64,000 nucleotides of DNA from an uncultured bacterium (GTDB lineage Bacteria; GCA-001730085). Location: NCBI GenBank assembly GCA_964565945.1, contig CAZMGY010000021.1, positions 44,300 through 108,299 of the forward strand. Reading direction: 5' to 3'. The position numbers and the translations under genes were made by a program. Positions 3,287-36,187 of the stretch are shown here, piece after piece (within the stretch, counting starts at the first letter, position 1; each line of letters opens with the position of its first letter). The notes below the pieces were generated by a model, which saw only the letters and a program-made list of their open reading frames with translations, was not told where the DNA came from and searched no databases.

Positions 3287-3363
3287 CGCGGGGTGGAGCA
3301 GACTGGAAGCTCGTTGGGCTCATAACCCAAAGGTCGAGGGTTCGAATCCCTCCCCCGCTACCA
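3287..3363 (+). tRNA. tRNA-Met (CAT), initiator type
   Basis: 77-nt cloverleaf read by hand: acceptor CGCGGGG/CCCCGCU with a 1-72 mismatch, D-stem GAGC/GCTC, anticodon stem with three G-C pairs next to loop CTCATAA (anticodon CAT), T-arm GAGGG-TTCGAAT-CCCTC, encoded CCA. Near-identical in layout to E. coli tRNA-fMet. Confidence 0.85.
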
Positions 3364-4477
3364 ACTCTATAGACGGCTGGCTAGAATAATTGTCATTGGC
3401 AACTAATCTGGCGAGCCCTTTTTTTATGTCTGCGTTTTTCATAGGATTCTCCTGTGAGGCTATGCTTAAAATACCGGCCAAAGAGCCGTGAAGATCAATT
3501 GATAGATCATCCTGCCCAGCTTTTGGGGTGAGGGTGATTTTCTCGATCAGCCCCCTTAAAATCAGCGCAGCTTCCCCTCTGTTTTCTTCTTGGTCTAAAG
3601 ATGCGCGTAAATCACTGATTTGCCTGCGATAGCGCTCAGCCATGGCAGGGTGAAGCATAGGCGCGGATTTTGGCGTGGCTTCGAGCAAGGTTTCCAACTC
3701 TTTGAGGCGCTCTGAGGCTCTCTCCAGATCATCTTTTATCAAATCCACGGCTACACCGTCTTTGATGGCCTGGATGATGTTCTCGCGCTCCTTAGCGAGT
3801 TTAGCAGCCTCTGCGCGGTAGCCCTTTAAGCTCTGATCATGCTGGCTTTGCAGCTTATTAAAGTGCTTCGTATATTCCGCGCAAAACACCTTCAAGAGAT
3901 CATCTCTCATGAGATGGGTTTGTAAGGCTCCGAGCACCAGAGCCTCGATGCGCTCACGTTTGATGCTCTTTTTATTGGCGCACACGCTAGAGCCTTTATT
4001 GCGGGATTGTGAGCAGCCATAGCGCTCAGAATTGATCTTGGCATAGCCACCGCCGCATATTCCGCATTTTAGTAGCCCAGAGAGCAGATAATTGGGGCGG
4101 TTATTGCGGTGCAGCCCCTTAAGGCTGGTATCAAGGGTCTTTTGACGGGATTTGGCAGCATCCCAAAGCTCCTGATCAACAATCCGTAAATCAGGCACAT
4201 CTTGCCTGATCCAATCCGCCTCATCGTTTAGGCGGGTAACGCGCTTGCCCGTAGCTGGGTCTTTGATAAAATGCTGGCGGTTCCAGATTAATTCCCCAAT
4301 ATAAAGATGGTTATTTAAGATGCCGGTTCCGCGCCTGCGATTACCATTGATGGTCGATTGCCCCCAGGCCTTGCCTGAGGGGGCAGGGATGCCGTCTTTG
4401 TTCAGCGCATCGGCAATTGCCTTGGGAGATTTATTTTTAAGGGCGTATTCTTCGAATATGCGCTTAACGATTTTGGC
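3320..4477 (-). CDS. large serine recombinase, C-terminal recombinase/zinc-ribbon portion (downstream of an in-frame stop)
   Basis: Reading frame is open from 4477 to 3320 and continuous with the 4478..5011 ORF except for one TAA at 4478-4480. Translation includes 'WGQSTINGNRRRGTGILNNHLYIGELIWNRQ' (recombinase-domain signature) and a Cys-rich 'CGICGGGY...CSQSRNKGSSVC' zinc-ribbon. The 3' end overlaps the tRNA 3' end. Confidence 0.7.
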   Translation of the reverse strand, partial: AKIVKRIFEEYALKNKSPKAIADALNKDGIPAPSGKAWGQSTINGNRRRGTGILNNHLYIGELIWNRQHFIKDPATGKRVTRLNDEADWIRQDVPDLRIVDQELWDAAKSRQKTLDTSLKGLHRNNRPNYLLSGLLKCGICGGGYAKINSERYGCSQSRNKGSSVCANKKSIKRERIEALVLGALQTHLMRDDLLKVFCAEYTKHFNKLQSQHDQSLKGYRAEAAKLAKERENIIQAIKDGVAVDLIKDDLERASERLKELETLLEATPKSAPMLHPAMAERYRRQISDLRASLDQEENRGEAALILRGLIEKITLTPKAGQDDLSIDLHGSLAGILSIASQENPMKNADIKKGLARLVANDNYSSQPSIELVAGEGFEPSTFGL

Positions 4478-5011
4478 TTAGATTTCGTTGATCTCCCGAT
4501 CACCGCGTATGGCCTCGCCCTCAGAGTTAAATTGCTTCACGACTTTATAGCCGTAAGCAATGCCGCCTCCAGATTTCCCTTTTTCAACGCGCCCGCGAAG
4601 CCCGCGCCGCGTTTTATCTGCAAGGTCTTTCAGGCACATAGCGTTCATCGTGCCTTTAAGGCCGATATGCAATGTTGAGATTTCACCTTCGGACAGAGTG
4701 ATGATTTTAACGCCAGCAAATTCCATGCGCTTATAGATACCGGCAATATCTTCCTGATCACGGGACAGGCGATCCAGCGCCTCGCAGATTAGAATATCAA
4801 ACTCACCGTTCATGGCAGCCGTTAGTAGCGATTGAATACCAGGGCGCATAAGTGATGCGCCTGATATTCCTGCATCGCTATAGCAGTTTCCTAAATCCCA
4901 GCCTTCGGCTTTGGCTTTTTCTGACGCGAGGCGGATTTGATCTTCAATCGAAGCATCGCTTTGAAGATCAGAGCTATATCTGGCATAGATGCAGGCGCGT
5001 AATTTTTTCAT
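4478..5011 (-). CDS. large serine recombinase, N-terminal resolvase/invertase catalytic domain (ends at in-frame TAA)
   Basis: 177 aa; 'CIYARYSSDLQ' catalytic-serine motif, then 'DILICEALDRLSRD' and 'KRMEFAGVKIITL', typical of the serine recombinase catalytic domain. Confidence 0.75.
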   Translation of the reverse strand: MKKLRACIYARYSSDLQSDASIEDQIRLASEKAKAEGWDLGNCYSDAGISGASLMRPGIQSLLTAAMNGEFDILICEALDRLSRDQEDIAGIYKRMEFAGVKIITLSEGEISTLHIGLKGTMNAMCLKDLADKTRRGLRGRVEKGKSGGGIAYGYKVVKQFNSEGEAIRGDREINEI

Positions 5012-8869: not shown

Positions 8870-9504
8870 TGTTCTGATCCTCCTTTTAAGGCAAGTTTGG
8901 CGCTGGGAACCATATGCGCGGTTGCCAGACCCATGGCAGCATTGGTGATGATTAGTGCTACGCTCATAATCAGCATCGGCCAAAAACTCGCCTCACCACC
9001 TGAAAAGCCAGGAATGGGAGAAGGTGCGGTTTCTTCCTTGATGCGTATATATAATGTTGCGAACTCAGTGGAGATCACGAAGAAATAGAGCAGGGCAAAC
9101 ACAGCGGTGATTACAATATGCAGCCCGTCTTTAAAGAATTTACCGCCAGCTTCGAATATCTCGCCGTGGCGCTCTAATAACTGCCCGAATAAAAATACCG
9201 GCGTAGCAACAGCGGCCAAGCCGAGCACGCCATTGATCAGCGTGCCTACAGAGATGTTGGAAAGTGCGGAGATATCCGGCAGGCCAAGAACATCAAGCAC
9301 AAACAGGTCAGAGCCAACCGTATTGACCAATGCGTAGTTACTTGTATGTAACAGCCAGTTACCTGCTTCCGCCGAGAAGATCAGGGATAATTTGCCAAAT
9401 AGCCATAACTTGTCGCTTGGCTCCAAGGGGTGCTGGTTTGAGCCGTGTTCAGGCGGCTGCCAGCTCTCGAAATTGTCGTTACTATCACTCATAAAAGCCT
9501 CCAA
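8866..9504 (-). CDS. hypothetical integral membrane protein
   Basis: 212 aa with several hydrophobic helices; first gene of a four-gene minus-strand block ending in the T4CP. Confidence 0.45.
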   Translation of the reverse strand: MEAFMSDSNDNFESWQPPEHGSNQHPLEPSDKLWLFGKLSLIFSAEAGNWLLHTSNYALVNTVGSDLFVLDVLGLPDISALSNISVGTLINGVLGLAAVATPVFLFGQLLERHGEIFEAGGKFFKDGLHIVITAVFALLYFFVISTEFATLYIRIKEETAPSPIPGFSGGEASFWPMLIMSVALIITNAAMGLATAHMVPSAKLALKGGSEQ

Positions 9505-9696
9505 CCCCTTCTAGTAAGGGGAGTTGTTTGAAATAGAGGCTTTGCGCAAAGCTTGGGGAAACTTTAATTTATTGGTTTGATGGAAGCAAAGACAGGACAC
9601 AAGACTATATTTCACTGCTATTTGCATAACATTTTGATAAACAATGAAAAATACAGGTAGAATTGGAAATTCAAACAGCAGTATTTTGAGGTTTAA

Positions 9697-10644
9697 ATGG
9701 CTAATTTAAGGAAGAACTCAGCAAAATCTGAATTTTGGAAAAAGCATGTGCAGGAGTGGAAGAAGGGGAGGCTAATTCAATCTGAATATTGTATAAAAAA
9801 TAAAATATCAGAATCTGCATTTTCCAAATGGAAAACTAAATTATTCCCAAAACAAATTGGAACGCGGCGCTTAAAACAGCTTAAAAATAAATATTATAAA
9901 AACTCGAAATTGTCTAACCAGCAAATCGAAAATTTATTTGTAGGTTTTTTATGTGATGTGCCAGCGAAAGTTGCTGCTAAAGGGAGTGATATAAGTGAGG
10001 CTACTGCTTATAAATACTATAACAAAATACGATATGATTTAGTTAATGGAGCGCTAAATTATCCGCTTTTATTTTTTGGTTCAGGGATGCTTTTGATTTT
10101 AGGGGCACCACCAGATGTACATGAGTTAGCACGCAAATTTAAACCCATAAGCCCAAGTATAAAAGGCAGAGAAAAACATATATATTACGCGCTTTGTAAT
10201 GTTTTGATTTGTCATTCTTTTCGCAAATGGACAGTTTCCGAGATATATTATTTTTGGTTTCAGGGGTTACGGGCATATTTTTTAAAGCACTATGCTAAAA
10301 GTCATGGTCTAAATGAAAGTGATTGGAATATGGCTATGGCAGTTCAGATGCAAAATAAAATTTCAATTGCAAAAATGACAGTAACAATATGGCTGGATTG
10401 GATAAAAGAGGGAGGAAATACTACCCCTTTTTCTGAGGATGTATGGGAAGCTATTCGATATCAACATGACTATCATGCTGATGCTAAATCCTGGATAAAA
10501 CCTATGCTCCATGATTTAAAATGGGTCGTAGAGAGAAATAATAATTTAAAAAGAAGTACATACTGGGATTTCTTTAAACCTAGCAAGTCAGGTATTCTTG
10601 AAGTAAATAGAAGGATTCATGAATACCTAGAAAGAACAAACTAG
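9697..10644 (+). CDS. hypothetical protein with N-terminal transposase-OrfA-like HTH
   Basis: 315 aa, very AT-rich; N-terminus 'EFWKKHVQEWKKGRLIQSEYCIKNKISESAFSKWKTKL' resembles IS3/IS66 OrfA-type HTH; remainder unrecognised. Confidence 0.4.
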   Translation: MANLRKNSAKSEFWKKHVQEWKKGRLIQSEYCIKNKISESAFSKWKTKLFPKQIGTRRLKQLKNKYYKNSKLSNQQIENLFVGFLCDVPAKVAAKGSDISEATAYKYYNKIRYDLVNGALNYPLLFFGSGMLLILGAPPDVHELARKFKPISPSIKGREKHIYYALCNVLICHSFRKWTVSEIYYFWFQGLRAYFLKHYAKSHGLNESDWNMAMAVQMQNKISIAKMTVTIWLDWIKEGGNTTPFSEDVWEAIRYQHDYHADAKSWIKPMLHDLKWVVERNNNLKRSTYWDFFKPSKSGILEVNRRIHEYLERTN

Positions 10645-11933
10645 ATTCTGAGCGCTATCTTTTGCAGCCATTTATACTTCTGTTCAAGGCTAGGACCATC
10701 CCCATATCGGGGACGGTCATATCTATGTCCCATGAGTGCAGCCTGTACTTTGTCGGGCGGCTCTACTGCCGTCAGCCGATCCTCAAAACTGTGACGCAGA
10801 CTGTATAGGCTATGATCTTCACTTGGAAGTAAATTGTTATTACGCAGAAACTTATTCAGATTTCCTGATAGCTGATCAGGTTTGCGGTAATATCGCTCAA
10901 ATCCTTTTGGTAGATTTTGAAACGCATAGAGTGATGATCCCACCAATGGCATGTAGCGTTCACTGTAGGGTGTTTTAATTTCCTTGTCTTTTTCTGCATG
11001 AATATATATGTAGGGGATATCTGTATCCAGCCTAATATCTCCTGCCTTAAAATTCAGGCCAACTAGCTCAGAGGGGCGAGCACCTAAATCGGCCATAGCG
11101 AATAGAAATAACTGACACTCTCGTTCCAACCCTTTCAGGTTGTCCATGTTTAATAATACATCTCGAATATGGTTCACCTTAAAAGGTTGTCTTTTGCTCT
11201 TTATTTCTTTGAACCTTATACGGCTGAATAATTCATCGACGCTGATGTCTGCGCCGTGATTATCTTTTGCAAAGAACAGGAGTGTTCGTAGATGCGTAAA
11301 ATCCTTGTTTGGTGAATTGGGAGATAGGCTTTCTGATTCGACGCGTTCTTGCCACCATGACCGAAATGCTAATATATCGTTTCTGGTGATTTGCTCTACT
11401 GATAGGTCGCCACATATTTTAATAAAATTACTGACAGCTTTTACTTTAGGGTTTTTCCATTTTCTTAGTTGGGATTCATTTTTTCTTGTATGATTTGGTT
11501 TTTCAAACTCGATATATGAATCTAATGCTTCGCTTATAGGAAATTTAGGTTTTTCTTTTCCTCCTAGTAAGGCAGTAACGTTTTCATCGGTCTCGGGTAT
11601 ATCCGATTGTAGCGCATCTAAACGATCAATAATCTTGCTGACATCAGAACCTGCAAGCTCTGAAATAGATTTGTACGAGAAATTGAATGTTTGGGCTGTA
11701 TGAACGGCTTTGCTATATTCATAGTCCTTATCCATCGGTATATTTTTTACGATGTTATTCCAGTAATTATCTAATTCCTCTTTTAATACTGATGCACGCT
11801 GAATGGCAACAGATTCTGATGTCGTCTTCAAGCTTACCTGTATGATCTCCTGGCCATCATAATATTTCAGATACCGTTTTGGTATTCTGTGTTTAAAGTG
11901 GAACCAGCCTTTTATTTTTATAATATGGCGCAT
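10641..11933 (-). CDS. tyrosine-type site-specific integrase/recombinase
   Basis: 430 aa; C-terminal catalytic region with 'GARPSEL' (Arg), 'LYSLRHSFEDRL' (His-x-x-Arg) and 'MGHRYDRPRYG' (His/Tyr), typical of the phage integrase family. Confidence 0.8.
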   Translation of the reverse strand: MRHIIKIKGWFHFKHRIPKRYLKYYDGQEIIQVSLKTTSESVAIQRASVLKEELDNYWNNIVKNIPMDKDYEYSKAVHTAQTFNFSYKSISELAGSDVSKIIDRLDALQSDIPETDENVTALLGGKEKPKFPISEALDSYIEFEKPNHTRKNESQLRKWKNPKVKAVSNFIKICGDLSVEQITRNDILAFRSWWQERVESESLSPNSPNKDFTHLRTLLFFAKDNHGADISVDELFSRIRFKEIKSKRQPFKVNHIRDVLLNMDNLKGLERECQLFLFAMADLGARPSELVGLNFKAGDIRLDTDIPYIYIHAEKDKEIKTPYSERYMPLVGSSLYAFQNLPKGFERYYRKPDQLSGNLNKFLRNNNLLPSEDHSLYSLRHSFEDRLTAVEPPDKVQAALMGHRYDRPRYGDGPSLEQKYKWLQKIALRI

Positions 11934-12146
11934 GTGTGACGTTTTGTGTTAAAAATGTGTGATGTTTTACTGTAACCGAATTAAGTAAAAATTCAGTTTA
12001 CGTCAACAACTTATTCTGCAAGGTAAGCTCACAAAGCGTTTCAGAAGATAGCAATTGTTAATAAATAGAGGGGAAGTGGCGGAGACTGAGGGATTCGTTT
12101 GTTGTTTTTTTGCCCTGTAACATACTGTTATGAAACAATAAAAATA

Positions 12147-12506
12147 TTAGGGTAAATAATTTGTGTGTGAAACGTGTGAAAAAATGTGTGAAATATTTTC
12201 TATGTTTTTTCTGCTAGAAACTTCTGTTGATAAGTTTTTATGGCCTATGCTTTTAGCAATGTCCAGAAGCTCATGCTTCGATTTATATTCTGTTAGTTCA
12301 TTATGCAACCGTTCAAACAATGGAAGATATCTATCACCGTAAACAGCAATGATATTTGCAAGGTGGTTATAAGCTTCCTGTAATTCAGTAAACGTTATTT
12401 TTGAGCGTTTAATTCTAACTTTTGAAAAAACATTTGCCTTATTTGATGATAAGACGGGGCTGCATTGTTTCATGCACTTTTCAATATTCCAATCTAGTGT
12501 AGGCAT
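12147..12506 (-). CDS. hypothetical protein
   Basis: 119-aa ORF, adjacent to and on the same strand as the AlpA-like gene; its 3' end coincides with TGTGTGA repeats, so the C-terminus is uncertain. Confidence 0.3.
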   Translation of the reverse strand: MPTLDWNIEKCMKQCSPVLSSNKANVFSKVRIKRSKITFTELQEAYNHLANIIAVYGDRYLPLFERLHNELTEYKSKHELLDIAKSIGHKNLSTEVSSRKNIENISHIFSHVSHTNYLP

Positions 12507-12853
12507 CAGCTTGTTTCCTTGCCACTATCCTGGCGATACGTATGCGGGCTTTTGATCCATTCATGAATATCTTTGAGATAAAAAGCCTTACGCTTAGCTT
12601 TCTTGTGTGAAGATAGCATTCTTGGCCTGGGGAATGTACCGCGTGCAATGCGCCTTCTTATCTCTTGCCTTGATATACCACAGAGCCTGACTGCAAGCTT
12701 TATTGGGATTAAGGCATTAGATTGGATCATTAGCGCGGCAGTAACTTCTGCCTCGAATGTTTTCTTTAAGCTAAATGATTTAAGTAAAAGCGTTTTCATA
12801 GGTGATTCCTTTCTACGATGTGCAGCTATTGCCACATATCTGCGTTTACTCAC
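12506..12853 (-). CDS. AlpA-like HTH DNA-binding protein (possible excisionase/regulator)
   Basis: 'IKLAVRLCGISRQEIRRRIARGTFPRPRML...AFYLKDIHEWI' resembles the prophage AlpA family (MerR-like HTH); true start may be an internal Met. Confidence 0.4.
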   Translation of the reverse strand: MSKRRYVAIAAHRRKESPMKTLLLKSFSLKKTFEAEVTAALMIQSNALIPIKLAVRLCGISRQEIRRRIARGTFPRPRMLSSHKKAKRKAFYLKDIHEWIKSPHTYRQDSGKETS

Positions 12854-13035
12854 CCATCCTTAATGATTGTGACGATGCCAGAAGCCCTCACAGTCTGATC
12901 TGCCTGTGACAGAACATATCGCCATATATCCATTACACACCATAATTACTTAATATTTTATTAACAACTCCCTTAAAAGCTACAGTGACAGCCATCTTTG
13001 TTTGCTGCAAAGCCGCATTGATCTGTGCGGCGGCA

Positions 13036-13563
13036 CTAATATAAATAACAGCTACTCTCCCCATCAATGACAATGCTCATGGGCTTGGCTGTCATAGAGA
13101 TAAAATCATCTATTAGATGCCATTTAGCGCTTGTCTTCCATTCGTTAGAATTTAGCCTAAGGGAAGCTTCTTGAAAGTAATTTTGCACTGCGGCAACATT
13201 TTTGTAGCCAATCGCAAATTCCAGCAGCGTATCGCTTTTGATCTTCTCAAAATGCAAATAAAGCGCACCGTCGCGATATTGTGCATATTCGTATGGAGTG
13301 GCAAAACTATTATTGATTTTAAGGCCACAATCTAATGTTTCTGGAGCGGCGGCTTTGACTGCCTCTATCGATACATTGATCCTGATCCAAACATCTGAGA
13401 TATCGGCTAAGGGAGATCGGACGCTGTAGGATATCCATGTATGAGTTTTATTGCCTGTTTTGCTGATGCGCGCTTTGCCAATCAACTCCCCCGCCCAGGC
13501 TCCAGAGCACAGGATTAAAGCCAGGACAAAGATGATGGTATTTTTCATGGGATTTGGCCTCAT
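13036..13563 (-). CDS. hypothetical secreted protein
   Basis: 175 aa with N-terminal signal peptide 'IIFVLALILCSGAWA'. Confidence 0.45.
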   Translation of the reverse strand: MRPNPMKNTIIFVLALILCSGAWAGELIGKARISKTGNKTHTWISYSVRSPLADISDVWIRINVSIEAVKAAAPETLDCGLKINNSFATPYEYAQYRDGALYLHFEKIKSDTLLEFAIGYKNVAAVQNYFQEASLRLNSNEWKTSAKWHLIDDFISMTAKPMSIVIDGESSCYLY

Positions 13564-13800
13564 TTAGGGATCGCCATTTAATTGGGCAATATCGCCCTTG
13601 AATAATTGCCATATTTGAAGCCCGAGGGCTTTGGCAATCTTTTCAACGGTGCCAATCTCAGGGCTGACTTCTCCGTGTTCAATCGCCCCGATATGGGTGC
13701 GGTGAAGGCCAGCACTCAAAGCCAGAGCTTCCTGCAACCATCTGCGCATCGCCCGAGCCAGCCGGATTTGATCTCCAAGGGTCTGCCGATATGTTTGCAC
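13564..13800 (-). CDS. XRE-family HTH transcriptional regulator
   Basis: 78 aa; 'LSAGLHRTHIGAIEHGEVSPEIGTVEKIAKALG' is a Cro/cI-type HTH. Confidence 0.55.
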   Translation of the reverse strand: MQTYRQTLGDQIRLARAMRRWLQEALALSAGLHRTHIGAIEHGEVSPEIGTVEKIAKALGLQIWQLFKGDIAQLNGDP

Positions 13801-13818
13801 GTGGCCGCCAGCCTGCTA

Positions 13819-13879
13819 TGATTCACATATGAATCATTATTGTAACGTAAAAATACTCCATTGAGTCACATATGGGTCA
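13819..13879. promoter_or_regulatory. paired operator-like palindromes between divergent XRE regulator genes
   Basis: Site 1 TGATTCA-CATA-TGAATCA (13819-13836, perfect 7-bp arms); site 2 TGAGTCA-CATA-TGGGTCA (13862-13879). Both lie in the 85-bp gap between divergently transcribed HTH genes. Confidence 0.5.
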
Positions 13880-13885
13880 AATAAT

Positions 13886-14086
13886 ATGAGCGTTATTATT
13901 CAGCGTTTAGCCATGAATATTCGGCGAAGGAGGGGTGATATATCGCAGCGTGCCTTTGCCAGCAAGCTAGGTATATCTCAATCCACTTTGGCGCGCATAG
14001 AAAACGCTGGCCAGAACACAACGCTCTCGACATTAGAGCAGCTCATGAAATCACTGAAATGCGATATAGGCGGGTTGTTCAAATGA
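13886..14086 (+). CDS. XRE-family HTH transcriptional regulator
   Basis: 66 aa; 'ISQRAFASKLGISQSTLARIENAGQNTTLSTLEQLMKSL' is a canonical XRE HTH. Confidence 0.55.
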   Translation: MSVIIQRLAMNIRRRRGDISQRAFASKLGISQSTLARIENAGQNTTLSTLEQLMKSLKCDIGGLFK

Positions 14087-14430
14087 GGTGTATATATAGT
14101 GAAGTACGGGAGCAGTAGGCAAGGCCGGTAGTTCCCGTCATCGCTTGCCAGCCGGTAAGGTTGCACTCAGGGCATTGTGAGCAACAGCACAATAGTTCCG
14201 CTATTGGTAAGTGCTTACGATGGGCGCAAGAAGTCGGTTGTATTACAAATTTCTGCGAATTTGCCCTCCAACCGCTATCTTGAGAAGGACGTTTCCCCGT
14301 CCGTTCTATCCTCAGGAGGCGCGCTAAGCTATCGAATTATTATTCGAGAGCAAGGGCTTATATGGTGCATTACCGGCATTGAGCCGAGTGCTGCACCAGC
14401 GAACGTGTGGCCGTTCTAATCACCACTTAT

Positions 14431-14545
14431 GGGAGCCTTCAAGCTGCCCCCAAAACCCCCATGATCAGGGGAGACTTCGCTCTCCCCTAAAGCCCCATCG
14501 AGTCAGGAGCCTTCGTGCCCCTAACAACCCAGACCAACCGTACGC
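14431..14545. repeat. degenerate tandem repeat, ~35-bp unit, ~3 copies
   Basis: Adjacent units CCCCCAAAACCCCCATGATCAGGGGAGACTTCG / CCCCTAAAGCCCCATCGAGTCAGGAGCCTTCG / CCCCTAACAACCCAGACCAACCG inside a ~650-bp GC-rich ORF-poor segment. Confidence 0.45.
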
Positions 14546-14733
14546 CGTTTGGATGCCGTGAACATTTCGGTGTTCAATGCCTACCACTGTTTCGTCAGTG
14601 GAAAACGATCAACGAGCGCCCTTGGATGCAACTGAGTTATGAAACGTCATCGCCAATGATGCAATATTCGCTATTGACATAGAGTTCGTTTTCGATTCTA
14701 ATAATCTGCATCATCGTTAATGAAGGAATTATT

Positions 14734-15330
14734 TTGAAGCTCACTGATCTTGCAATTATATCCGCTGGACACCCATTCAGAGGGAAAATACTGGAAAAAT
14801 CCGGTAGCGGTATCCGTGCCGTGCAGATGAAAGACATCTCTATTGATCAGGGTGTTTGTTGGGAGAGCGTTATCGAAACGGAGCTTTCTGGCAAAAAAAA
14901 ACCTGCTTGGCTGATGAATGGGGATATCCTTTTCGCAGCCAGAGGCGCACGTAATTATGCCGTACTGGTAGATCATATTGTAGGGAAAGTCGTTAGTGCT
15001 CCTCATTTCTATATTCTCCGTGTGAACGAGCAATCGCTTTTGCCGGAATTTCTGGTCTGGCAGCTCAATCAAAAACCCCTGCAAAACTATTTCGACAGGG
15101 CAGCGCAAGGGTCGTTTACCAAGAGCATTAAACGCTCAATTTTAGAATGTGCTGAAATCACAGTACCGCCACTAGATAACCAAAAGCAAATCGTAGGCTT
15201 GCACATGACATTGATGCAAGAAAGAAAGCTCTATTCTGAATTGACCAGAAATGCGGATAAGTTAATGAATTCTATTGCCAGCAAACTTGCGGCAGGTAAA
15301 ACTCTACAGTTAAAAGGAATAAAAATATGA
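14734..15330 (+). CDS. hsdS: type I restriction-modification specificity subunit, single-TRD (half-size HsdS)
   Basis: 198 aa; one target-recognition-like region followed by an S-subunit-type conserved helix ('QKQIVGLHMTLMQERKLYSELTRNADKLMNSIA'); stop overlaps the hsdM start (ATGA). Confidence 0.55.
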   Translation: MKLTDLAIISAGHPFRGKILEKSGSGIRAVQMKDISIDQGVCWESVIETELSGKKKPAWLMNGDILFAARGARNYAVLVDHIVGKVVSAPHFYILRVNEQSLLPEFLVWQLNQKPLQNYFDRAAQGSFTKSIKRSILECAEITVPPLDNQKQIVGLHMTLMQERKLYSELTRNADKLMNSIASKLAAGKTLQLKGIKI

Positions 15331-16850
15331 ACACACCAATAAGCCAAGATGCTATCAACAAAGCCTTATGGGGGGCATGCGATACATTCCGTGGCACGGT
15401 CAGCGCTGACACATACAAAGACTTTATCCTAACCATGTTGTTCCTGAAATACATCTCTGATGTTTGGCAGGATCACTATGACAAATACAAAGAAGAGCAT
15501 GGTGACGAGCCAGAGCTTATTCATGAAATGATGAAGAATGAGCGCTTTGTTCTTCCCGATGGATCAAGCTTTTATACCCTTTATGAAAAACGCCATGAAC
15601 CCGGCAATGGTGAGCGTATCGACCAAGCTCTTCACGCATTGGAAGAGGCTAACGGCACTAAGCTTCGTGATGCATCAAAATCCGTGTTTCAGGATATCAG
15701 TTTTAACACTGATAAGCTCGGTGAAGAAAAACAAAAAAACACCATTCTTCGCCACTTGCTGGAAGATTTTGCCAAAGATGAATTAAACCTTCGCCCCAGT
15801 CGTGTTGGATCACTCGATGTGATCGGTAACGCCTACGAATATCTGATTAAGCACTTTGCCGCAGGTGGTGGGCAAAAAGCAGGAGAATTCTATACCCCGC
15901 CCGAAGTATCTGACCTGATTGCAGAATTGCTAGACCCACAAGAAGACGACACAATTTCTGATCCGGCTTGTGGTTCTGGTTCCTTGCTCATGAAATGTGG
16001 TCGTAAAATTAAAAAGCGTTTTAACAGCAAAAAATACGCACTCTACGGGCAAGAAGCTATTGGCTCTACTTGGTCTCTGGCGAAAATGAATATGTTCCTG
16101 CATGGCGAAGACAATCACAAAATAGAGTGGGGAGATACAATCAGAAACCCTAAGCTACTGAATAAGCATGGCGGCTTGATGCATTTTGATATTGTGACGG
16201 CTAATCCTCCATTCAGTCTCGATAAATGGGGGCATGATGAAGCTGATCATGATCCGTTTGGACGTTTTCGTCGTGGTATTCCTCCAAAGACCAAAGGTGA
16301 TTATGCCTTTATTTCGCATATGATCGAAACTATGGAGCCGACTACAGGGCGTATGGGCGTTGTTGTTCCGCATGGTGTTTTGTTTCGTGGTAGCTCAGAA
16401 GGAAAAATCCGCAAACAATTGATAGAAGAAAATTTGCTTGATACGGTGATAGGACTTCCTGAAAAGCTCTTTTACGGTACAGGGATACCGGCGGCGATTC
16501 TGATCTTTAAGAAAAATAAGGCGGATAGCAATGTCCTGTTCATTGATGCCAGCCGTGAATGTAAGACGGGTAAAAACCAAAACCTACTCACGCTTGATAA
16601 TATTAAAAAAATAGTCAAGACATATAAGGTGCGTAAAAGCTTTGATAAATATTCGTATTTGGCCAATTTTGAGGAGATTGAGGAAAACGACTTTAACCTT
16701 AATATCCCGCGTTATGTCGATACTTTTGAAGAGGAAGAAGAAATTGACCTATTGGCAGTGCGTAAAGAGCGTGAAGAACTAAAAACTCAACTCGTCGAAC
16801 TGGAAACGGAAATGGATGGTTATCTCAAGGAGCTGGGTTATGGTTCCTGA
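15327..16850 (+). CDS. hsdM: type I restriction-modification DNA methyltransferase subunit M
   Basis: 507 aa; 'YTPPEVSDLIAELL', 'DPACGSGSLL' (AdoMet motif I) and 'IVTANPPFS' (NPPF motif IV) of N6-adenine MTases. Confidence 0.92.
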   Translation: MNTPISQDAINKALWGACDTFRGTVSADTYKDFILTMLFLKYISDVWQDHYDKYKEEHGDEPELIHEMMKNERFVLPDGSSFYTLYEKRHEPGNGERIDQALHALEEANGTKLRDASKSVFQDISFNTDKLGEEKQKNTILRHLLEDFAKDELNLRPSRVGSLDVIGNAYEYLIKHFAAGGGQKAGEFYTPPEVSDLIAELLDPQEDDTISDPACGSGSLLMKCGRKIKKRFNSKKYALYGQEAIGSTWSLAKMNMFLHGEDNHKIEWGDTIRNPKLLNKHGGLMHFDIVTANPPFSLDKWGHDEADHDPFGRFRRGIPPKTKGDYAFISHMIETMEPTTGRMGVVVPHGVLFRGSSEGKIRKQLIEENLLDTVIGLPEKLFYGTGIPAAILIFKKNKADSNVLFIDASRECKTGKNQNLLTLDNIKKIVKTYKVRKSFDKYSYLANFEEIEENDFNLNIPRYVDTFEEEEEIDLLAVRKEREELKTQLVELETEMDGYLKELGYGS

Positions 16851-18075
16851 TGGGTGGAAAGAAGAAAATCTTGGAACTCTTTTTGAGTTTAAAAATGGCG
16901 CTAATACTGAGGCAGCCAATTACGGTTCTGGAATTAAGTTTGTTAATGTGATGGACGTGTTTGGTAATCACTTTATTACTAGCGAGAAAATTCGTGAAAG
17001 AGTTAATCTGCCTGAAAAAAAGATTAATTTATATTTGTTAAAAATGGGCGACGTATTATTTAATAGAACGTCAGAGGTTTTCGACGAAATTGCTCTAACT
17101 GCTGTTTATATGGATACTTCACCAGCAATATTTGGTGGCTTCGTTATTAGGGGGCGACCTAAGGCTAACGAACTTGACTTTAAATTTTGTATTTATTGTT
17201 TTTCATCTTATAGAGTCCGTAAGGAATCTATAAGAAGAGGGCAAGGGGTAATACGATCGAACATTGGTCAAAAAGACCTACAGTATGTTCCGTTGTTAGT
17301 TCCTCCTATTATAGAACAAAAGAAAATAGCCAAAATATTATTGACTTGGGATCGAGCGATTGAGGTAACAGAAAAACTAATCAGCAATAGTCAGCAACAA
17401 AAAAAGTCCCTCATGCAACAACTCATCACTGGCAAAAAACGCCTTCTGGGATTTAGTGATGAATGGGAAAAGATTCGATTAAAGCCTCTTTTAGAGGAGG
17501 GAAAGGCTAGAAATAAAGATAGTTCAATACAACGAGTATTAAGTGTTACTAATCATAGCGGTTTTGTATTACCAGAAGATCAATTTTCAAAACGTGTGGC
17601 GAGCAGTAATGTCAGTAACTATAAAATAGTTAAACGTGGAGAATTTGCATATAACCCATCTCGTATAAACGTTGGTTCATTTGCGCGTCTTGATGATTAT
17701 GATGAGGGTATTCTTAGCCCAATGTATGTTGTTTTCAGTGTTAAGAAAGATTCGCTATTTAGTGACTTTTTCTTTCAGTGGATGTCATCACATCACGCAA
17801 AACAACGTATTCTTTCAAGTACGCAGGGATCGGTAAGAGATTCAGTCAGTTTTCAAGCACTTTGTGCGTTCCCGTTTTTGCTTCCATCACTAAAAGAACA
17901 ACGAAAAATTGCGTCAGTTCTTTTATCTGCGGATAAAGAAATTGAAACTCTTCAACAAAAACTCGAATACCTCAGCCAAGAAAAAAAGGCGCTGATGCAA
18001 CAACTCCTCACTGGCAAACGCCGTGTGAAAATTGATGAAGATGGTATTTCTCAGAAGGAGGTTGTGCGTGCCTGA
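16840..18075 (+). CDS. hsdS: type I restriction-modification specificity subunit S (two TRDs)
   Basis: Two variable regions, each followed by a conserved repeat ('QKKSLMQQLITGKKRLLGF' and 'EKKALMQQLLTGKRRV'); start overlaps the hsdM 3' end. Confidence 0.85.
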   Translation: MVPDGWKEENLGTLFEFKNGANTEAANYGSGIKFVNVMDVFGNHFITSEKIRERVNLPEKKINLYLLKMGDVLFNRTSEVFDEIALTAVYMDTSPAIFGGFVIRGRPKANELDFKFCIYCFSSYRVRKESIRRGQGVIRSNIGQKDLQYVPLLVPPIIEQKKIAKILLTWDRAIEVTEKLISNSQQQKKSLMQQLITGKKRLLGFSDEWEKIRLKPLLEEGKARNKDSSIQRVLSVTNHSGFVLPEDQFSKRVASSNVSNYKIVKRGEFAYNPSRINVGSFARLDDYDEGILSPMYVVFSVKKDSLFSDFFFQWMSSHHAKQRILSSTQGSVRDSVSFQALCAFPFLLPSLKEQRKIASVLLSADKEIETLQQKLEYLSQEKKALMQQLLTGKRRVKIDEDGISQKEVVRA

Positions 18076-19144
18076 TATTATTTCATTTGAAGCCGCTATT
18101 GCGGAGTCAGAACAATATAAAAAACGTCATTTATTGCTAGGCAATGGTTTTAGTATTGGCTGTCGAGCTGACATATTTCATTATGAGTCTCTTTTTGGGG
18201 AAGCTGATTTTTCGGCAATTCCTGAGGCTAAACAGGTTTTTGAATCTTTACAGACACAGGATTTTGAAGTTGCAATTCGCGCACTTGAGAATGGTTCAAA
18301 AATTCTACCTATCTATGTGCCCAATGATGACGCAAGCGTTCAGGCAATGAGTAATCATGCTATTGCGCTTAAAGATTTGTTAGTTGCCACAATTGCTGGC
18401 AACCATCCTCCTAATCCTAATGCAATAGATGATCCAGAGTTTTGGGCTTGCCGACAGTTTTTAAGTTATTTCCTCGCTTCGGATAAGGGAGGACATGTCT
18501 TCACTCTAAACTATGACTTATTACTGTATTGGGCATTGATGCATGATGACAATCCATTTGATGAGGAAGTGGTGGAGCTGAACAAGAATGATGGGTTCGG
18601 AAATGATGAAGATGATCCAGAAGCGGATTATGTTCTCTGGCAAGGTGAGACCTCCGCGCATAGTGCAAATATACTTTTTCTGCACGGTGCACTTCATCTA
18701 TTTGACTCGGGTGCAGAGCTACAGAAATATACTTGGGTTCGTAAGGGTGAACCATTGGTGGATCAAGCGCGCACTGCAATAGCTGCGAATAAATTCCCTC
18801 TTTTTGTCGCGGAAGGAACAAGTACACAAAAGAAAAACAAAATTCGCCATAACGCATATCTTTACCAGTGTTTTAAGGTTCTGACAGCCAACGCACAGAC
18901 TGGCACGCACTGTTTTTTCATATTTGGACATTCGTTAGCTGATAGTGATGACCACATCCTAAAACGTCTTGGTAAAGGCCGTTTTAAGAAATTATATGTA
19001 GGTATTTTTGGTGATGCGGATACGCCAGAAAATAGGAATGTGATTGCACGCGCAAATGCTATCGCAGCACTTAGACATGATAGGTATCCTCTTGAGGTGG
19101 TGTTTTTCGATTCCTCATCCGCTAATGTTTGGGGGAATGATTAA
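18068..19144 (+). CDS. DUF4917 / SIR2-like domain protein embedded in the type I R-M operon
   Basis: Gly-rich 'LLLGNGFSIG', 'LFLHGALHLFD' and 'IFGHSLADSDDHIL' resemble the SIR2-like/DUF4917 arrangement (from memory, not searched). AGGAGG RBS and GTG at 18068; the track ORF starts at 18032. Overlaps hsdS and hsdR stops/starts. Confidence 0.6.
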   Translation: MPDIISFEAAIAESEQYKKRHLLLGNGFSIGCRADIFHYESLFGEADFSAIPEAKQVFESLQTQDFEVAIRALENGSKILPIYVPNDDASVQAMSNHAIALKDLLVATIAGNHPPNPNAIDDPEFWACRQFLSYFLASDKGGHVFTLNYDLLLYWALMHDDNPFDEEVVELNKNDGFGNDEDDPEADYVLWQGETSAHSANILFLHGALHLFDSGAELQKYTWVRKGEPLVDQARTAIAANKFPLFVAEGTSTQKKNKIRHNAYLYQCFKVLTANAQTGTHCFFIFGHSLADSDDHILKRLGKGRFKKLYVGIFGDADTPENRNVIARANAIAALRHDRYPLEVVFFDSSSANVWGND

Positions 19145-22100
19145 TGGCTTTGATTCCCAAATTCCAAGAAGAATACAGCGCGAAAATTCCAGCATTAACG
19201 CTGCTTCATAATCTTGGTTGGACGTTCTTATCACCCGAGCAAGCTTTATCCGCTCGCAATGGCAAAACCAGTGAGGTGGTTTTACGTGAAGTGTTGAGAG
19301 AAGAACTTCGAAAACGCCGTTTTACTTTTGCAGGGAAAGAACGCGTTTTTTCTGAAAATGCTATTGATAATGTTATTGCGGAACTATGCGCGCCAGCTTT
19401 GAACGAAGGCTTAGGTGTTGCTAATGAAAGAATATATAACCATTTGCTTTATGGTATATCGGTAAAAGAGTTTATTGACGGTAAGAAAGTAAATCCAACA
19501 ATCCAAATTATTGACTGGGACAATGTTGATAATAATAGTTTTCTTTTTACCGAAGAATTTAGTGTTTTAAGAACGGGTGAAGTTGAATCCCGTAGACCAG
19601 ATATTGTTTGTTTTGTGAATGGATTGCCATTTGCAGTGATCGAAGCAAAACGTCCTGATGGTCATACCAATAAGGGATTGACCATTGATGAAGGTATTTC
19701 CCAGAATATCCGCAATCAACGCAATGATGAAATCCCTCATTTATTTGCATACTCCCAACTTCTTTTTTCAATCAATGGGGCTGATGGTCGTTATGGCACG
19801 CAAGGTACATCAAAACCGTTTTGGGCACCTTGGCGCGAAGAAGATATTTCTGAAGGAGAATTTTATATCCTGAAAAATAAAGCATTGAGTTCTGATGCAA
19901 AAGATACACTGTTTTCGCATAGACCAAAGCAGGATCGTAAGTGGTATGAAGAGCTTATAGTTGGTGGCGAACTTGCCGTTACTGAACAAGACAAAATGCT
20001 CATAAGTCTTCTTTCTCCATCACGGTTGATTGAAATGACAAGATATTTTGTATTGTTCGATAAAAAAATAGGGAAAGTGGCAGCACGATATCAGCAAGTA
20101 TTTGGTATTAAGCGTCTGATCGAGAGAATTAATACAAAAGATAATAAGGGCGTGCGTCAGGGTGGTGTTATATGGCACACCACTGGCTCTGGTAAATCTT
20201 TTACCATGGTCTTCTTGTCGAAAGCTCTTATCTTGCATGGCTCATTGAAGCAGTGCCGTATCGTGGTCGTAACTGATCGTGTTGATTTGGAAAGCCAGTT
20301 AAGTACGACCTTTAGTACAGGCGGAGAACTTGCCAGCAAGAAGGATAAAGCAGCCGCTATTGCAACATCTGGAAGAATGTTAGCAGAACAGATTTCTAAA
20401 GGTAATGAGCGAATAATGTTTTCTATTATTAACAAATTTGCTGTCGCCGCCAAAATGCAAGAGTGTCATAACCTAAGCTCTGACATTATCGTTCTTATTG
20501 ATGAAGGACATCGTTCGCAAGGCGGTGAAAACTTTATCCGTATGCGCAATGCTCTGCCTAATGCAGCTTTTATTGCATTTACAGGAACGCCGTTGTTAAA
20601 AGATGATAAAACGGAAAATAAATTCGGCTCGATTGTTCATGCCTATACGATGCAAAGAGCAGTTGAAGACAAAGCTGTTACACCTCTGCTATATGAAGAA
20701 CGTATCCCTGATCTTGATGTAAATGAACGAGCGATTGATAGTTGGTTTGATCGGATTACAGAGGGTCTCACAGATGAGCAGAAGACGGATTTAAAAAAGA
20801 AATTTGCCAAGAAAGGACACCTTTATCAATCCGAAGATCGTATTCGTTTGATTGCTTATGATATAGCTAATCATTTTGTGAAGAATATTGATGATGGACT
20901 TAAGGGGCAGATTGCTTGTGATAGTAAATTATCAGCCATTAAATATAAGCAATTCATGGATGAGCTTGGTCTGTTTAAATCTGCGGTTGTAATGTCTGCG
21001 CCAGATACCAGAGAGGGCAACACAGATGTTGATGAAGCTACTATCCATGAGGTGGCTAAGTGGTGGAAGGAAAATGTAGGATCACAGGATGAGAAAAGTT
21101 ACACAAAAAATATTGTTAAGCGATTTGAGGAAGATAATGACCTTAAAATTATAATCGTAGTTGATAAGTTACTTACTGGATTTGATGAACCGAGAAATAC
21201 AGTTCTTTACATTGATAAGCCCCTCAAAGAGCACAGCCTGATTCAAGCTATAGCGCGAGTTAATCGTTTGCATGAGAAAAAGAAATTCGGTTTGCTTATT
21301 GATTATCGCGGTATTCTGGCAGAGCTTGATACCACAATAGCTAAATATCAGGATTTGGCTAGCCGTACTCAAGGTAGATTTGATATTGAAGACCTTGAAG
21401 GTCTCTATCAACAAATGAGCACCGAATATAAAAAACTACCGCGTTTGTATAAAGATTTATTAGCAATATTCAAGAATGTTAAAAATAAAGGCGATATTGA
21501 ACAGCTTCGTCAGGTTATAGTTCCAAAAGTACAAGAACAACATGGTGAAATGGTAGATATTAATTTAAAAGCACGTGAAGACTTCTATGATCGATTAAGT
21601 GAGTTTGCTAATTGTTTGAAAGTTGCTTTGCAATCAGCTAGTTTTTATGAAGATAAAAGCTTCACAGAACAGGACAGAAAGCACTACAAAGAAACTGTTA
21701 AACAATATTCATCATTGCGTCAACTTGCCAAGGCTGATGCGGGTGAGACAGTCGATTACGACGAATATGCCGAGCAAGTAAAGAAGCTGATGGATAAGCA
21801 TGTTGTCGGTGTGGAGGTTAAAGAACCTGATGGTGTTTATGAAGTAGGTAAGATGGGTAAATCTGATCCAAAAGACTGGTCAGAAGATAAAACTCGAAAC
21901 GAAACCGATATTATAAAAACTCGTATTACTCGCATGATAGAGCAAAGCTTGCGTGATGATCCTTATGCGCAAGAAGTTTTTTCTAAGCTACTTAAGCAGG
22001 TAATAGAGGAAGCAGAAACCTTGTTTGACCATCCGTTGAAGCAATACATGCTGTTTAAAGAATTTGAAGAAAAAGTCGAAAAACGTGAAGTCGATAGTTT

Positions 22101-22419
22101 GCCTGATAAGTTTGCAGATAATAAGCACGCACAAGCCTACTATGGTGTTTTGAAAATGTATGTTGGCGAAAACCTTTCTACCATAGATGAAGAACTATCT
22201 GACCGATGGGTGGGGCTTTCTTTCAATGTAGATGAGATTATTACGAATGCTATAGCCGAGCACTCAATAAATCCCCAAAACATTGAATCCGAAATTCGAA
22301 ACAAGCTACTTCCTATGATCTTTAGTGAGTGTAAGAAAGTAGGTTCAGGAATAGATCAGACTAAGGCAATAACTGAAAGAATTGTTCAGATTGTACGCGT
22401 AGGACTAAATCACTCATGA
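19144..22419 (+). CDS. hsdR: type I restriction enzyme R subunit (endonuclease/helicase)
   Basis: 1091 aa; helicase Walker A 'TTGSGKSFTM' and DEAD-box-like 'VLIDEGHRSQ'; start overlaps the upstream stop (TAATG). Confidence 0.92.
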   Translation: MALIPKFQEEYSAKIPALTLLHNLGWTFLSPEQALSARNGKTSEVVLREVLREELRKRRFTFAGKERVFSENAIDNVIAELCAPALNEGLGVANERIYNHLLYGISVKEFIDGKKVNPTIQIIDWDNVDNNSFLFTEEFSVLRTGEVESRRPDIVCFVNGLPFAVIEAKRPDGHTNKGLTIDEGISQNIRNQRNDEIPHLFAYSQLLFSINGADGRYGTQGTSKPFWAPWREEDISEGEFYILKNKALSSDAKDTLFSHRPKQDRKWYEELIVGGELAVTEQDKMLISLLSPSRLIEMTRYFVLFDKKIGKVAARYQQVFGIKRLIERINTKDNKGVRQGGVIWHTTGSGKSFTMVFLSKALILHGSLKQCRIVVVTDRVDLESQLSTTFSTGGELASKKDKAAAIATSGRMLAEQISKGNERIMFSIINKFAVAAKMQECHNLSSDIIVLIDEGHRSQGGENFIRMRNALPNAAFIAFTGTPLLKDDKTENKFGSIVHAYTMQRAVEDKAVTPLLYEERIPDLDVNERAIDSWFDRITEGLTDEQKTDLKKKFAKKGHLYQSEDRIRLIAYDIANHFVKNIDDGLKGQIACDSKLSAIKYKQFMDELGLFKSAVVMSAPDTREGNTDVDEATIHEVAKWWKENVGSQDEKSYTKNIVKRFEEDNDLKIIIVVDKLLTGFDEPRNTVLYIDKPLKEHSLIQAIARVNRLHEKKKFGLLIDYRGILAELDTTIAKYQDLASRTQGRFDIEDLEGLYQQMSTEYKKLPRLYKDLLAIFKNVKNKGDIEQLRQVIVPKVQEQHGEMVDINLKAREDFYDRLSEFANCLKVALQSASFYEDKSFTEQDRKHYKETVKQYSSLRQLAKADAGETVDYDEYAEQVKKLMDKHVVGVEVKEPDGVYEVGKMGKSDPKDWSEDKTRNETDIIKTRITRMIEQSLRDDPYAQEVFSKLLKQVIEEAETLFDHPLKQYMLFKEFEEKVEKREVDSLPDKFADNKHAQAYYGVLKMYVGENLSTIDEELSDRWVGLSFNVDEIITNAIAEHSINPQNIESEIRNKLLPMIFSECKKVGSGIDQTKAITERIVQIVRVGLNHS

Positions 22420-23165
22420 GGAATTTAGCTACACACAGGAATGGTTCAATTCAATATGGAGATACAGCCATTAATTTTTCTATTGAACCCAGAGCAACAG
22501 ATGCACCAAAAGTTTTAATAAAAGTACATCCAGATTGCCGCGTTGTAGCACTTGCACCACCGATGGCATCTCATGATGAAATTATGCAGGCGGTAAAGAA
22601 ACGAGCACGATGGGTTTGTAAACAAATGCGGTACTTTGATAAACAACGCGAAAATATTCTCCCGCGTCACTATGTTAGTGGCGAAAGTCATTTCTATCTT
22701 GGGCGTAGGCATCTATTAAAGGTTCAAGAAAATGCTCAAGATACTCCCAAGGTGAAGTTGCTACGGGGTGTTTTGGAAGTTCAAGTACGCAAAGTAAGCC
22801 CAGAAAAAATAAAAGCAATGCTTTTTGATTGGTATAGAGTTCGTGCTAAAGAAGTATTTGATCGTAGGCTAGAAGAAGTTGTTTCTAAAACATTGTGGGT
22901 AAATGATAAGCCATCTATTCACCTTCTTTCTATGCAGACGCAATGGGGGAGTTGCTCGCCGAAAGGTCAGTTGACAATTAATCCTCATTTGGTGAAAGCA
23001 CCAAGAGATTGTATTGATTATGTGCTACTTCATGAGCTTTGCCATATTGCAGAACATAATCATAGTGAACGGTTCTATCGGCTAATGAAGCAAGTTATGC
23101 CTCATTGGGAAAAAGTAAAAGAAAGACTCGATGGTATGGCTTACTTTTATTTGAACGATACTTAA
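22416..23165 (+). CDS. M48-family zinc metallopeptidase (DUF45/YgjP-like), R-M associated
   Basis: 249 aa; HExxH zinc motif in 'YVLLHELCHIAEHNHSERF'; ATGA overlap with the hsdR stop. Confidence 0.8.
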   Translation: MRNLATHRNGSIQYGDTAINFSIEPRATDAPKVLIKVHPDCRVVALAPPMASHDEIMQAVKKRARWVCKQMRYFDKQRENILPRHYVSGESHFYLGRRHLLKVQENAQDTPKVKLLRGVLEVQVRKVSPEKIKAMLFDWYRVRAKEVFDRRLEEVVSKTLWVNDKPSIHLLSMQTQWGSCSPKGQLTINPHLVKAPRDCIDYVLLHELCHIAEHNHSERFYRLMKQVMPHWEKVKERLDGMAYFYLNDT

Positions 23166-30095: not shown

Positions 30096-30119
30096 AGGGC
30101 TCTTCGGAGCCTTTTTTTT
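30096..30119 (+). terminator. rho-independent terminator downstream of ardA
   Basis: GGGCTC-TTCG-GAGCCT hairpin (UUCG tetraloop) followed by a T8 run. Confidence 0.6.
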
Positions 30120-36161: not shown

Positions 36162-36187
36162 AAAATTCATTTTTAAAGGAGACAGCT

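Follow-up and report, generated by a model that had tools for sequence, protein, structure and literature searches.

A conserved array of short hairpins on a tRNA-Met island as a putative origin of transfer detached from its mobilisation genes

The DNA analysed here, referred to below as the window, is a 64,000-nucleotide (nt) stretch of contig CAZMGY010000021.1 (assembly GCA_964565945.1) from an uncultured bacterium. Our subject is the segment at 14087-14733 of the window, which lies between a gene for a 66-amino-acid (aa) XRE-type helix-turn-helix (HTH) protein (13886-14086, + strand) and a 198-aa half-HsdS gene (14734-15330, + strand), the first gene of a type I restriction-modification (RM) operon. 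On the basis of position and architecture, we read this segment with moderate confidence as the probable origin of transfer (oriT) region of a MobC/relaxase module of the pTF4.1/pcai42B type, carried in an integrative mobilisable element of about 33 kb at tRNA-Met and detached from the mobilisation (mob) genes.

A first-pass annotation, made from the sequence alone, had described the segment as GC-rich and poor in open reading frames (ORFs), and the GC profile and ORF list bear this out. GC content is 0.52-0.54 at 14200-14650, compared to 0.31-0.45 in the genes on both sides, and the segment contains no ORF longer than 80 aa. None of its six internal ORFs has a Pfam match, and the longest (80 aa) gave just two weak matches among 5.8 billion proteins, which argues against the suggestion that this is a decayed gene. 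The same annotation had counted about three degenerate, C-rich tandem units of some 35 bp, and a repeat search agrees, with three copies of CCCCWAAANCCCCA at 14448, 14484 and 14518, spaced 36 and 34 nt apart. Tandem Repeats Finder reports no repeat in the segment because the copies are too degenerate. Read from the sequence, each unit consists of a hairpin (14431-14449, 14467-14488 and 14502-14525) and a C-rich linker, and the three loops, CTTCAA, CTTCGC and CTTCGT, share the form CTTCNN.

Exact-protein look-ups returned identical copies only, so the half-HsdS family was aligned instead (136 relatives), giving 52 genomic loci; individual loci are cited below by L numbers. Homologues of approximately 14176-14602 were detected by nhmmer in six of the 52, from Nitrosomonas, Burkholderiales, Kordiimonadaceae and a gammaproteobacterium. 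In some of the six the element lies immediately 5′ of the half-hsdS gene, and in others a 483-aa gene intervenes. The invariant-base pattern ATCACCANTNNNGGGAGCNTNCNNGC retrieved 110 metagenome contigs, nearly all of them true homologues, and had no hits among viral contigs. By nhmmer, the family comprises 97 loci from metagenome-assembled genomes (MAGs) and metagenomes, a sample that is biased towards copies retaining the pattern. An Rfam search of the kind that the first-pass annotation had proposed, run on both strands of 9000-20000, found no family at E ≤ 1; this includes group II intron domains, tmRNA, RNase P and ROOL/GOLLD/HEARO. No match to the window element was found by blastn in E. 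coli genomes, PLSDB plasmids or phages, nor to a second representative, L087, in plasmids; only the L024 representative matched plasmids, in four PLSDB records. Upstream of the element in L024, a Nitrosomonas MAG, there is a long (GAT)n-type microsatellite (935-1396) with poly-(Asp-Gly) and poly-(Ile-Thr) ORFs.

Flank alignments place the conserved element at approximately 14105-14630, a length of about 530 bp with no conserved ORF. Its 3′ border is abrupt: right after ...TTGGATGCG, even near-identical copies differ completely. Beyond it, 14645-14733 forms a separate conserved block, the promoter/leader of half-hsdS with TTGACA at 14676-14681, which nhmmer also finds in L008, L009, L013 and L017, loci that lack the element core. 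A promoter/terminator scan found no sigma-70-like promoter or terminator within 14105-14630, and no promoter or terminator is conserved at the element borders, where the flanks diverge at once. The hsd operon retains its own conserved promoter block 3′ of the element, which speaks against an earlier proposal that the segment regulates the half-hsdS gene. The parts of the element, with letters and positions as read in the window, are listed here together with a second, partial copy.

14105-14143: 5′ boundary; a variable-sequence hairpin, then conserved CCGTCATC; GTCATCG at 14137-14143 is the 5′ strand of helix P1 (flank alignment, alignment A6)
14144-14224: variable 5′ subdomain inside P1, with hairpin ATAGTTCCGCTAT at 14191-14203; CGATG at 14218-14222 is the 3′ strand of P1
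14226-14282: helix P2, CAAGA (14227-14231) with TCTTG (14278-14282) (RNAalifold)
14235-14240 and 14269-14274: helix P2a, CGGTTG with CAACCG, inside P2 (RNAalifold, alignment variants)
Inside P2 (14226-14282): nearly invariant TGTAnTACAAA (invariant columns of alignment A3)
14283-14314: core; inverted repeat P3 (AGAAGGACG at 14283-14291, a loop, CGTCC-G-TTCT at 14298-14307), then ATCC at 14308-14311 (covariation in P3); putative relaxase recognition and nick region
14321-14357: helix P4, GCGCT (14321-14325) with AGGGC (14353-14357), around the hairpin TCGAAT/ATTCGA (14332-14347)
14363-14398: helix P5, TGGTGCA (14363-14369) with TGCACCA (14392-14398), and an inner P5a (covariation)
14401-14416: hairpin P6, GAACG (14401-14405) with CGTTC (14412-14416) (covariation)
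14418-14425: invariant AATCACCA (invariant columns)
14426-14533: three tandem modules of ~35 nt, each a hairpin plus a C-rich linker
14534-14630: 3′ domain, with hairpins H1 (14534-14552), H2 (14560-14575), H3 (14584-14601) and H4 (14610-14625), ending in TTGGATGCA (A5 covariation, junction alignment)
30130-30225: second partial copy, with H1-like, H2 and H3 hairpins of the 3′ domain in a different sequence variant (nhmmer, E=1.5e-14)

The element is a chain of about 20 short hairpins, the stems of which vary in sequence yet still pair. Compared to shuffled sequences, RNA folding gave z = -6.25 for the + strand and -4.03 for the - strand; DNA folding gave z = -3.77 and -4.56, respectively, and none of 100 shuffles folded as well. 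In the four hairpins of the 3′ domain (alignment A5), 94.5% of cells are paired and both sides have changed in 12 of the 24 pairs. These values for pairing and two-sided change were not reached in any of 500 shuffles, and moving the partners by 1-3 columns left pairing in only 21-45% of cells. Over the 5′ and central part, RNAalifold predicts 42 pairs, and compensatory changes are seen in 15. Among the helices is the long-range P1, which closes the variable subdomain; in alignment A6, P1 joins 12-18 to 110-119, and one of its pairs is CG 12 times and GC 10 times. Variants read from the alignments keep P2a paired (GTGCGTG/CACGCAC, GCGTTG/CAACGC, CGGTTG/CAACCG), as they do P4 in A6 (GCTCT/AGAGC, GCGCT/AGCGC, GCACT/AGTGC). 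A lambda boxA-like CGCTCTAA was considered and ruled out, as that segment covaries as helix P4. Homologues have 0 to 4 tandem modules in the stretch from the invariant AATCACCA to the 3′ domain, and the window has 3.

The segment is thus non-coding, structured and conserved, with compensatory changes, which agrees in part with the first-pass annotation; other details of that annotation need revision. Bases that had been likened to a group II intron domain V, which is a 34-nt hairpin with an AGC triad, a 2-nt bulge and a GNRA loop, are split between P5/P5a (14363-14398) and P6 (14401-14416), both supported by covariation, with no Rfam intron match; the P5 and P6 pairs (A6 311-346 and 350-365) show AU/GC swaps. 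The noted GGCAAG...CTTGCC complementarity does exist in the sequence, but its pairing is neither predicted nor conserved.

At the core, which is the most conserved part of the element, the combination of an inverted repeat and GTTGC-ATCC is found in 74 of 82 distinct elements, and P3 keeps its pairing via compensatory changes. The pyrimidine 3′ arm of this inverted repeat and the flank that follows GTTGC form a mirror repeat (14283-14320 and homologues), so that a ‘parallel complement’ rule links the flank to the purine 5′ arm. This rule holds at 160 of 222 positions in 37 distinct arm/flank combinations, compared to 124.7 ± 4.8 in shuffles (maximum 141 in 2000). One position alone has G:C 26 times and A:T 10 times, with one exception. 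Judged by its letters, the rule matches the predicted code of a triplex, in the pyrimidine motif for the + strand or in the purine motif for the - strand. It is thus conceivable, although we think it unlikely, that the family represents a new class of structured single-stranded nucleic acid of mobilisable islands and plasmids: an oriT whose inverted repeat would sit in an intramolecular triplex with the mirror-repeat flank, joined to an expandable array of short hairpins. Acting as a long RNA or within the transferred strand, this array would serve to establish the incoming element in the recipient, be it through priming, transcription from single-stranded DNA (ssDNA) or protection of the strand end. 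If true, this would explain the attachment of defence cargo to the element.

The conservation of helices and core also bears on a simpler idea, namely that the element is an inert relic of a plasmid mob region, or a conserved recombination boundary for the swapping of cargo, with no present function. The window relaxase is split, mob genes are absent near most copies, the junction after TTGGATGCG is sharp and the second copy is truncated, all of which would suit a relic. However, compensatory changes keep the helices across Alpha-, Beta- and Gammaproteobacteria and Desulfobacterota, and the core motif is widely retained as described above. Helix upkeep and core motif retention together indicate purifying selection rather than decay, and we therefore consider a functionless relic highly improbable.

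A connection to DNA transfer is suggested by the plasmid relatives. The match in Frigidibacter pcai42B (19 kb) and Desulfosarcina Do28_2 (16 kb) covers the P3 inverted repeat with its flanks, CTTGGCAAGGGAG..CTCCCGTTGCATCC, and is located directly 5′ of mobC-relaxase; in pcai42B at least ten hairpins of ~33 nt stand between the core and mobC. Using the window relaxase as a tblastn query, we found further family members. In pTF4.1, pSREG01 and a pSymB island, P2, the inverted repeat, an A(T/C)CCCC box and tandem hairpins are seen just 5′ of mobC. In total, the core is present upstream of mobC in five plasmid or island records (L171 and L172, and in a diverged form L176, L177 and L178), and in all five it is followed by tandem hairpins of ~33 nt in variable number.

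The window has its own mobilisation genes, all on the - strand: a relaxase ORF (34273-35034), a second ORF (33642-34160) and an adjacent 153-aa ORF that is MobC-like by similarity (34943-35404). The relaxase is split, with 34273-35034 corresponding to residues 1-229 and 33642-34160 to residues 269-442 of a 442-aa homologue, and the window fragment has 32% identity (E=1e-35) to the pcai42B relaxase. These relaxases carry Pfam PF03432, their family has 4161 members at E ≤ 1e-20, and MOB-suite assigns those of the pTF4.1/pcai42B type to MOBP or MOBQ. Element and relaxase are 20 kb apart in the window and 14 kb apart in Tritonibacter p2, convergent in both cases, and they share one contig in WBZN01000391.1. 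Approximately 100 nt upstream of mobC (window 35405-35520, - strand; L181 9420-9589) are conserved among island-type loci, with the consensus ..TACTATC..GAGGGAGT.C.C.CTTCAA.GG.., and in the window this block contains AAGGATGCG, which is similar to the 3′-terminal TTGGATGCG of the element. This block may serve as the mobC promoter or as a second site for the relaxase. In L179-L182 and in the window (29559-30071), islands that carry this relaxase family, the relaxase always has an ardA gene a few kb away, encoded on the other strand and in the same direction as the defence cargo.

An inverted repeat near a conserved box, upstream of accessory and relaxase genes, is the usual place and form of an oriT. 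A further source on this standard position and form is PMC12375680. An inverted repeat beside a conserved box is present in 74 of the 82 distinct elements and in the plasmids; a cognate relaxase exists in the same mobile element in the window, though it is split; and adjacency to relaxase and accessory genes is seen in the five records just described, as opposed to the distances of 20 and 14 kb in the window and Tritonibacter. Because the element is homologous in position to the regions upstream of mobC, an origin of transfer acting at the DNA level is a better reading than a structured non-coding RNA (ncRNA). In the proposed mechanism, a relaxase, possibly supplied in trans, would bind the inverted repeat and nick beside it, rendering the island mobilisable. 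In islands, exchangeable defence cargo would have taken the place of the mob genes at the 3′ junction (...TTGGATGCG). The hairpin array most likely acts in ssDNA during transfer, and its candidate roles are relaxosome or termination architecture and the priming of the complementary strand. Defence cargo adjoining the element fits a report that many islands carry oriT alone and that defence systems cluster next to the oriTs of integrative elements (bioRxiv 10.64898/2026.01.13.699239).

Several observations weigh against an oriT. No experimentally mapped oriT for this relaxase family was found in the literature. Within 5 kb of the metagenomic copies there are 506 ORFs, with no MobC or relaxase among them, and the relaxase homologues that were checked, on plasmids (L174, L175) and island contigs (L181, L182), lack an element in the surrounding 10-20 kb; in L181 and L182, which are the closest island-type relaxase loci, mobC adjoins a tRNA attachment (att) site instead. 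With around 500 bp and some 20 conserved hairpins, the element far exceeds the needs of a minimal oriT. Compared to plasmids, the element in islands is inverted relative to mobC-relaxase, so the ‘relaxase enters last’ rule is unable to fix the transferred strand. Finally, the cues for the transferred strand (relaxase orientation, ardA orientation, nick-box similarity and wobble) are in conflict.

Favouring the + strand, an ATCC(T/C) box lies 3′ of the inverted repeat, reading TATCCTG in L156 and L137, and resembles the RP4/R64 nick box. The RP4/R64 nick box is likewise found 3′ of its inverted repeat, and the oriT sequences of RP4 and RSF1010 have exact matches in IncP and IncQ plasmids. Other cues favour the - strand. 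On plasmids, the rule that mob genes enter last gives the - strand as the one transferred. Folding as RNA gives a more stable - strand in each of 46 elements. The - strand has 281 interior G.U pairs and 12 A.C 1x1 mismatches, vs 95 and 65, respectively, on the + strand; counted by sequence context, A.C mismatches with Watson-Crick pairs on both sides are found in 48 on the + strand and 12 on the - strand. Plasmid copies have the same composition bias as island elements. When only the consensus helices of A5 and A6 are counted, G.T (44, of which 17 come from one column pair) and A.C (23) are nearly balanced.

This asymmetry, along with the extensive covariation, the G-rich composition and greater stability of the - strand, and its loops (GCGAAA, GCGAAG and GGGCAA in the alignments, with G first and A last), would suit a large structured ncRNA transcribed from the - strand, antisense to the hsd operon and to plasmid mobC, serving as a regulatory or protein-binding RNA of mobile elements. 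We judge such an RNA rather improbable. Rfam has no match on either strand, the borders hold no conserved promoter or terminator and their flanks diverge immediately, neighbouring genes follow no orientation rule, and wobble in the consensus helices does not favour the - strand. Furthermore, G.T is the best-tolerated mismatch in DNA hairpins, so the wobble asymmetry suits - strand ssDNA equally well. A CsrB-like protein sponge was dropped from consideration because the hairpin loops, judged by eye only, have no GGA.

An RNA from the opposite strand, i.e. a long structured 5′ leader controlling the next operon (mobC-relaxase on plasmids, defence cargo on islands), might use its C-rich linkers as Rho-loading sites. 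The linkers are indeed C-rich, and the element is co-directional with downstream genes in most loci and with mobC in 5 of 5 plasmid-type records. However, in a sizeable minority of loci the gene immediately 3′ is convergent, the hsd operon's own conserved promoter block lies 3′ of the element, no promoter is conserved at the 5′ border, and the many A.C mismatches in + strand helices would not be tolerated in RNA. Such a leader thus appears very improbable.

Compatible with an oriT, and bearing on what the array does, is the idea that it is an ssDNA signal of the Frpo/ssi or sso kind, which would recruit RNA polymerase or primase in the recipient for transcription of the adjacent genes or priming of the complementary strand. 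As ssDNA, both strands show significant folding, and the wobble asymmetry singles out one of them. On the island, the ardA, hsdM and toxin-antitoxin (TA) genes all have the - strand as template, which matches the orientation of leading-region genes transcribed from the transferred T-strand (PMC11541004). A second partial copy of the element is also found upstream of the next cargo operon. Set against this, known Frpo sequences are long hairpins with -35/-10 boxes (PMC11541004), whereas our element is a string of hairpins of 6-10 bp with no sigma-70-like site inside, and blastn found nothing similar in E. coli genomes and plasmids, F-type Frpo included. We regard this signal as possible, if unlikely.

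To return to the putative oriT, it is carried in an integrative mobilisable element at 3335-36162, bounded by direct repeats of the 3′ end of tRNA-Met (3335-3364 and 36132-36162). The repeat has 22+13 exact nt with a 1-nt indel, its copies are about 33 kb apart, and the 13-nt piece recurs at 35512-35524, which is suggestive of nested or tandem insertions. For the ORF called at 36056 (TGT), the true start is probably beyond 36162. ARAGORN finds a tRNA-Met at 3287-3363 only, and the possibility that the hairpin element is itself a tmRNA- or tRNA-like integration target was rejected, with ARAGORN and Rfam both negative. The island carries genes for a split serine recombinase, a TraG/VirD4 coupling protein (type IV) and a tyrosine integrase, the oriT-like element, the RM operon, genes for a 1750-aa STAND NTPase and ArdA, the partial second copy, and SEC-C and AbiE genes followed by the relaxase and MobC genes. 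There are no mating-pair genes between the tRNA-Met repeats, and the island may need a relaxase from elsewhere, acting in trans. The large serine recombinase next to tRNA-Met (3320-5011, - strand) seems to be split into a zinc-ribbon recombinase ORF (3320-4198) and a resolvase-domain ORF (4478-5011).

The second copy lies between ardA and the SEC-C/AbiE genes, just after the ardA terminator (30097-30120) and approximately 125 nt before the SEC-C-motif gene. It may have been left behind by an earlier cargo swap, or it may be a functional module in its own right. Its being an att-site duplicate of the element's 3′ end was ruled out, since it is a different and truncated variant and not a target duplication. 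On either side of the main element, two further features stand out. The RM operon (14734-23165) has an unusual order: a conserved, stand-alone half-HsdS (198 aa, 136 relatives), hsdM, full hsdS, a DUF4917 (SIR2-like) gene, hsdR and a YgjP-like metallopeptidase gene. At 13564-14086, small divergent XRE-family HTH genes (78 aa on the - strand, 66 aa on the + strand) are separated by two 18-nt direct repeats of TGAKTCACATATGRRTCA (13819 and 13862), which look like the operator pair of a switch.

Across the family, clustering of the 506 neighbouring ORFs together with Pfam and PADLOC scans revealed no conserved protein partner on either side, and neighbours follow no rule of orientation. The upstream side is a mixed backbone of HipBA, AlpA-like and XRE regulators, tyrosine and serine recombinases, coupling protein, ArdC, RadC and insertion sequence (IS) elements. 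Downstream, most genes are for defence, with type I, II, IIG and III RM, Lamassu, MADS, AbiE and helicase/nuclease genes, and the cargo also includes a RES-like protein and nucleases. Near-identical elements have upstream genes in common and different downstream genes, which indicates that the element marks the border between backbone and exchangeable cargo. Since it heads many unrelated cargoes and precedes mobC-relaxase in plasmids, the earlier view of the segment as a regulatory or recombination region for half-hsdS is not supported.

From literature searches, the element family and its architecture appear to be undescribed, while oriT as a kind is already known. If the element is an oriT, a transfer mechanism could be named for widespread defence-carrying islands of environmental Proteobacteria, of which about 100 copies were found, and the core motif with its hairpin array would provide a sequence handle for islands in genomes that have no annotated relaxase. 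Its non-textbook features, namely the variable-copy hairpin array, the strand-biased wobble and the mirror covariation of stem and flank, may indicate an undescribed step in the processing of transferred ssDNA.

Known systems that come close to it include the oriTs of MOBP and MOBQ plasmids, where an inverted repeat is joined to YATCCTG (RP4/R64) or to TAAGTGCGCC (RSF1010). The element likewise has an inverted repeat, a few bases and a near-invariant GTTGC-ATCC(T/C), with TATCCTG in some copies, and its plasmid copies are immediately 5′ of an accessory gene and a PF03432 relaxase. It differs in being ~530 bp long with ~20 hairpins, a tandem array of variable copy number and a covarying mirror repeat of stem and 3′ flank. 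Island copies are detached from the mob genes and inverted relative to them; by blastn the window element has no PLSDB match, and none of the four records hit by L024 is IncP or IncQ. Frpo/ssi and sso origins are also orientation-specific, strongly folded non-coding DNA of mobile elements (150-350 nt) that act single-stranded next to a nick site. Going by sequence, the element is not Frpo-like because it has no sigma-70-like boxes inside; unlike those origins it has no -35/-10 boxes in a long stem, no sequence similarity to them, and many short hairpins with helices of 5-10 bp.

Integron attC sites resemble the element as ssDNA hairpins at the borders of exchangeable cargo in which structure is conserved over sequence, but the element has no R′/R″ core sites, no integron integrase and no pattern of one site per cassette, and its hairpins are tandem and ~33 nt long. 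The arrays of ToxI-type (type III) TA systems similarly have tandem units of ~36 nt upstream of a gene, but their repeats are near-identical and the units of the element are degenerate, with stems that vary through compensatory changes. A ToxI-like antitoxin was rejected, given the blank Tandem Repeats Finder result, the half-HsdS gene downstream and the lack of a ToxN/AbiQ-like toxin among the downstream families.

The islands can also be compared with the iOriT/pOriT work of Ares-Arroyo et al. (bioRxiv 10.64898/2026.01.13.699239; NAR 2023, PMC10123127), which covers six nosocomial species. Here too an oriT-like sequence is found in integrative elements with no adjacent relaxase or mating-pair genes, and defence systems such as RM and Lamassu are concentrated beside it. 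The window island differs in that it retains MobC along with a split relaxase and is thus not oriT-only in the strict sense, and the element is absent from E. coli genomes and belongs to environmental Proteobacteria (Nitrosomonas, Kangiella, Rhodobacterales and others). If it is indeed an oriT, the concept of the ‘oriT-only island’ would extend past clinical species.

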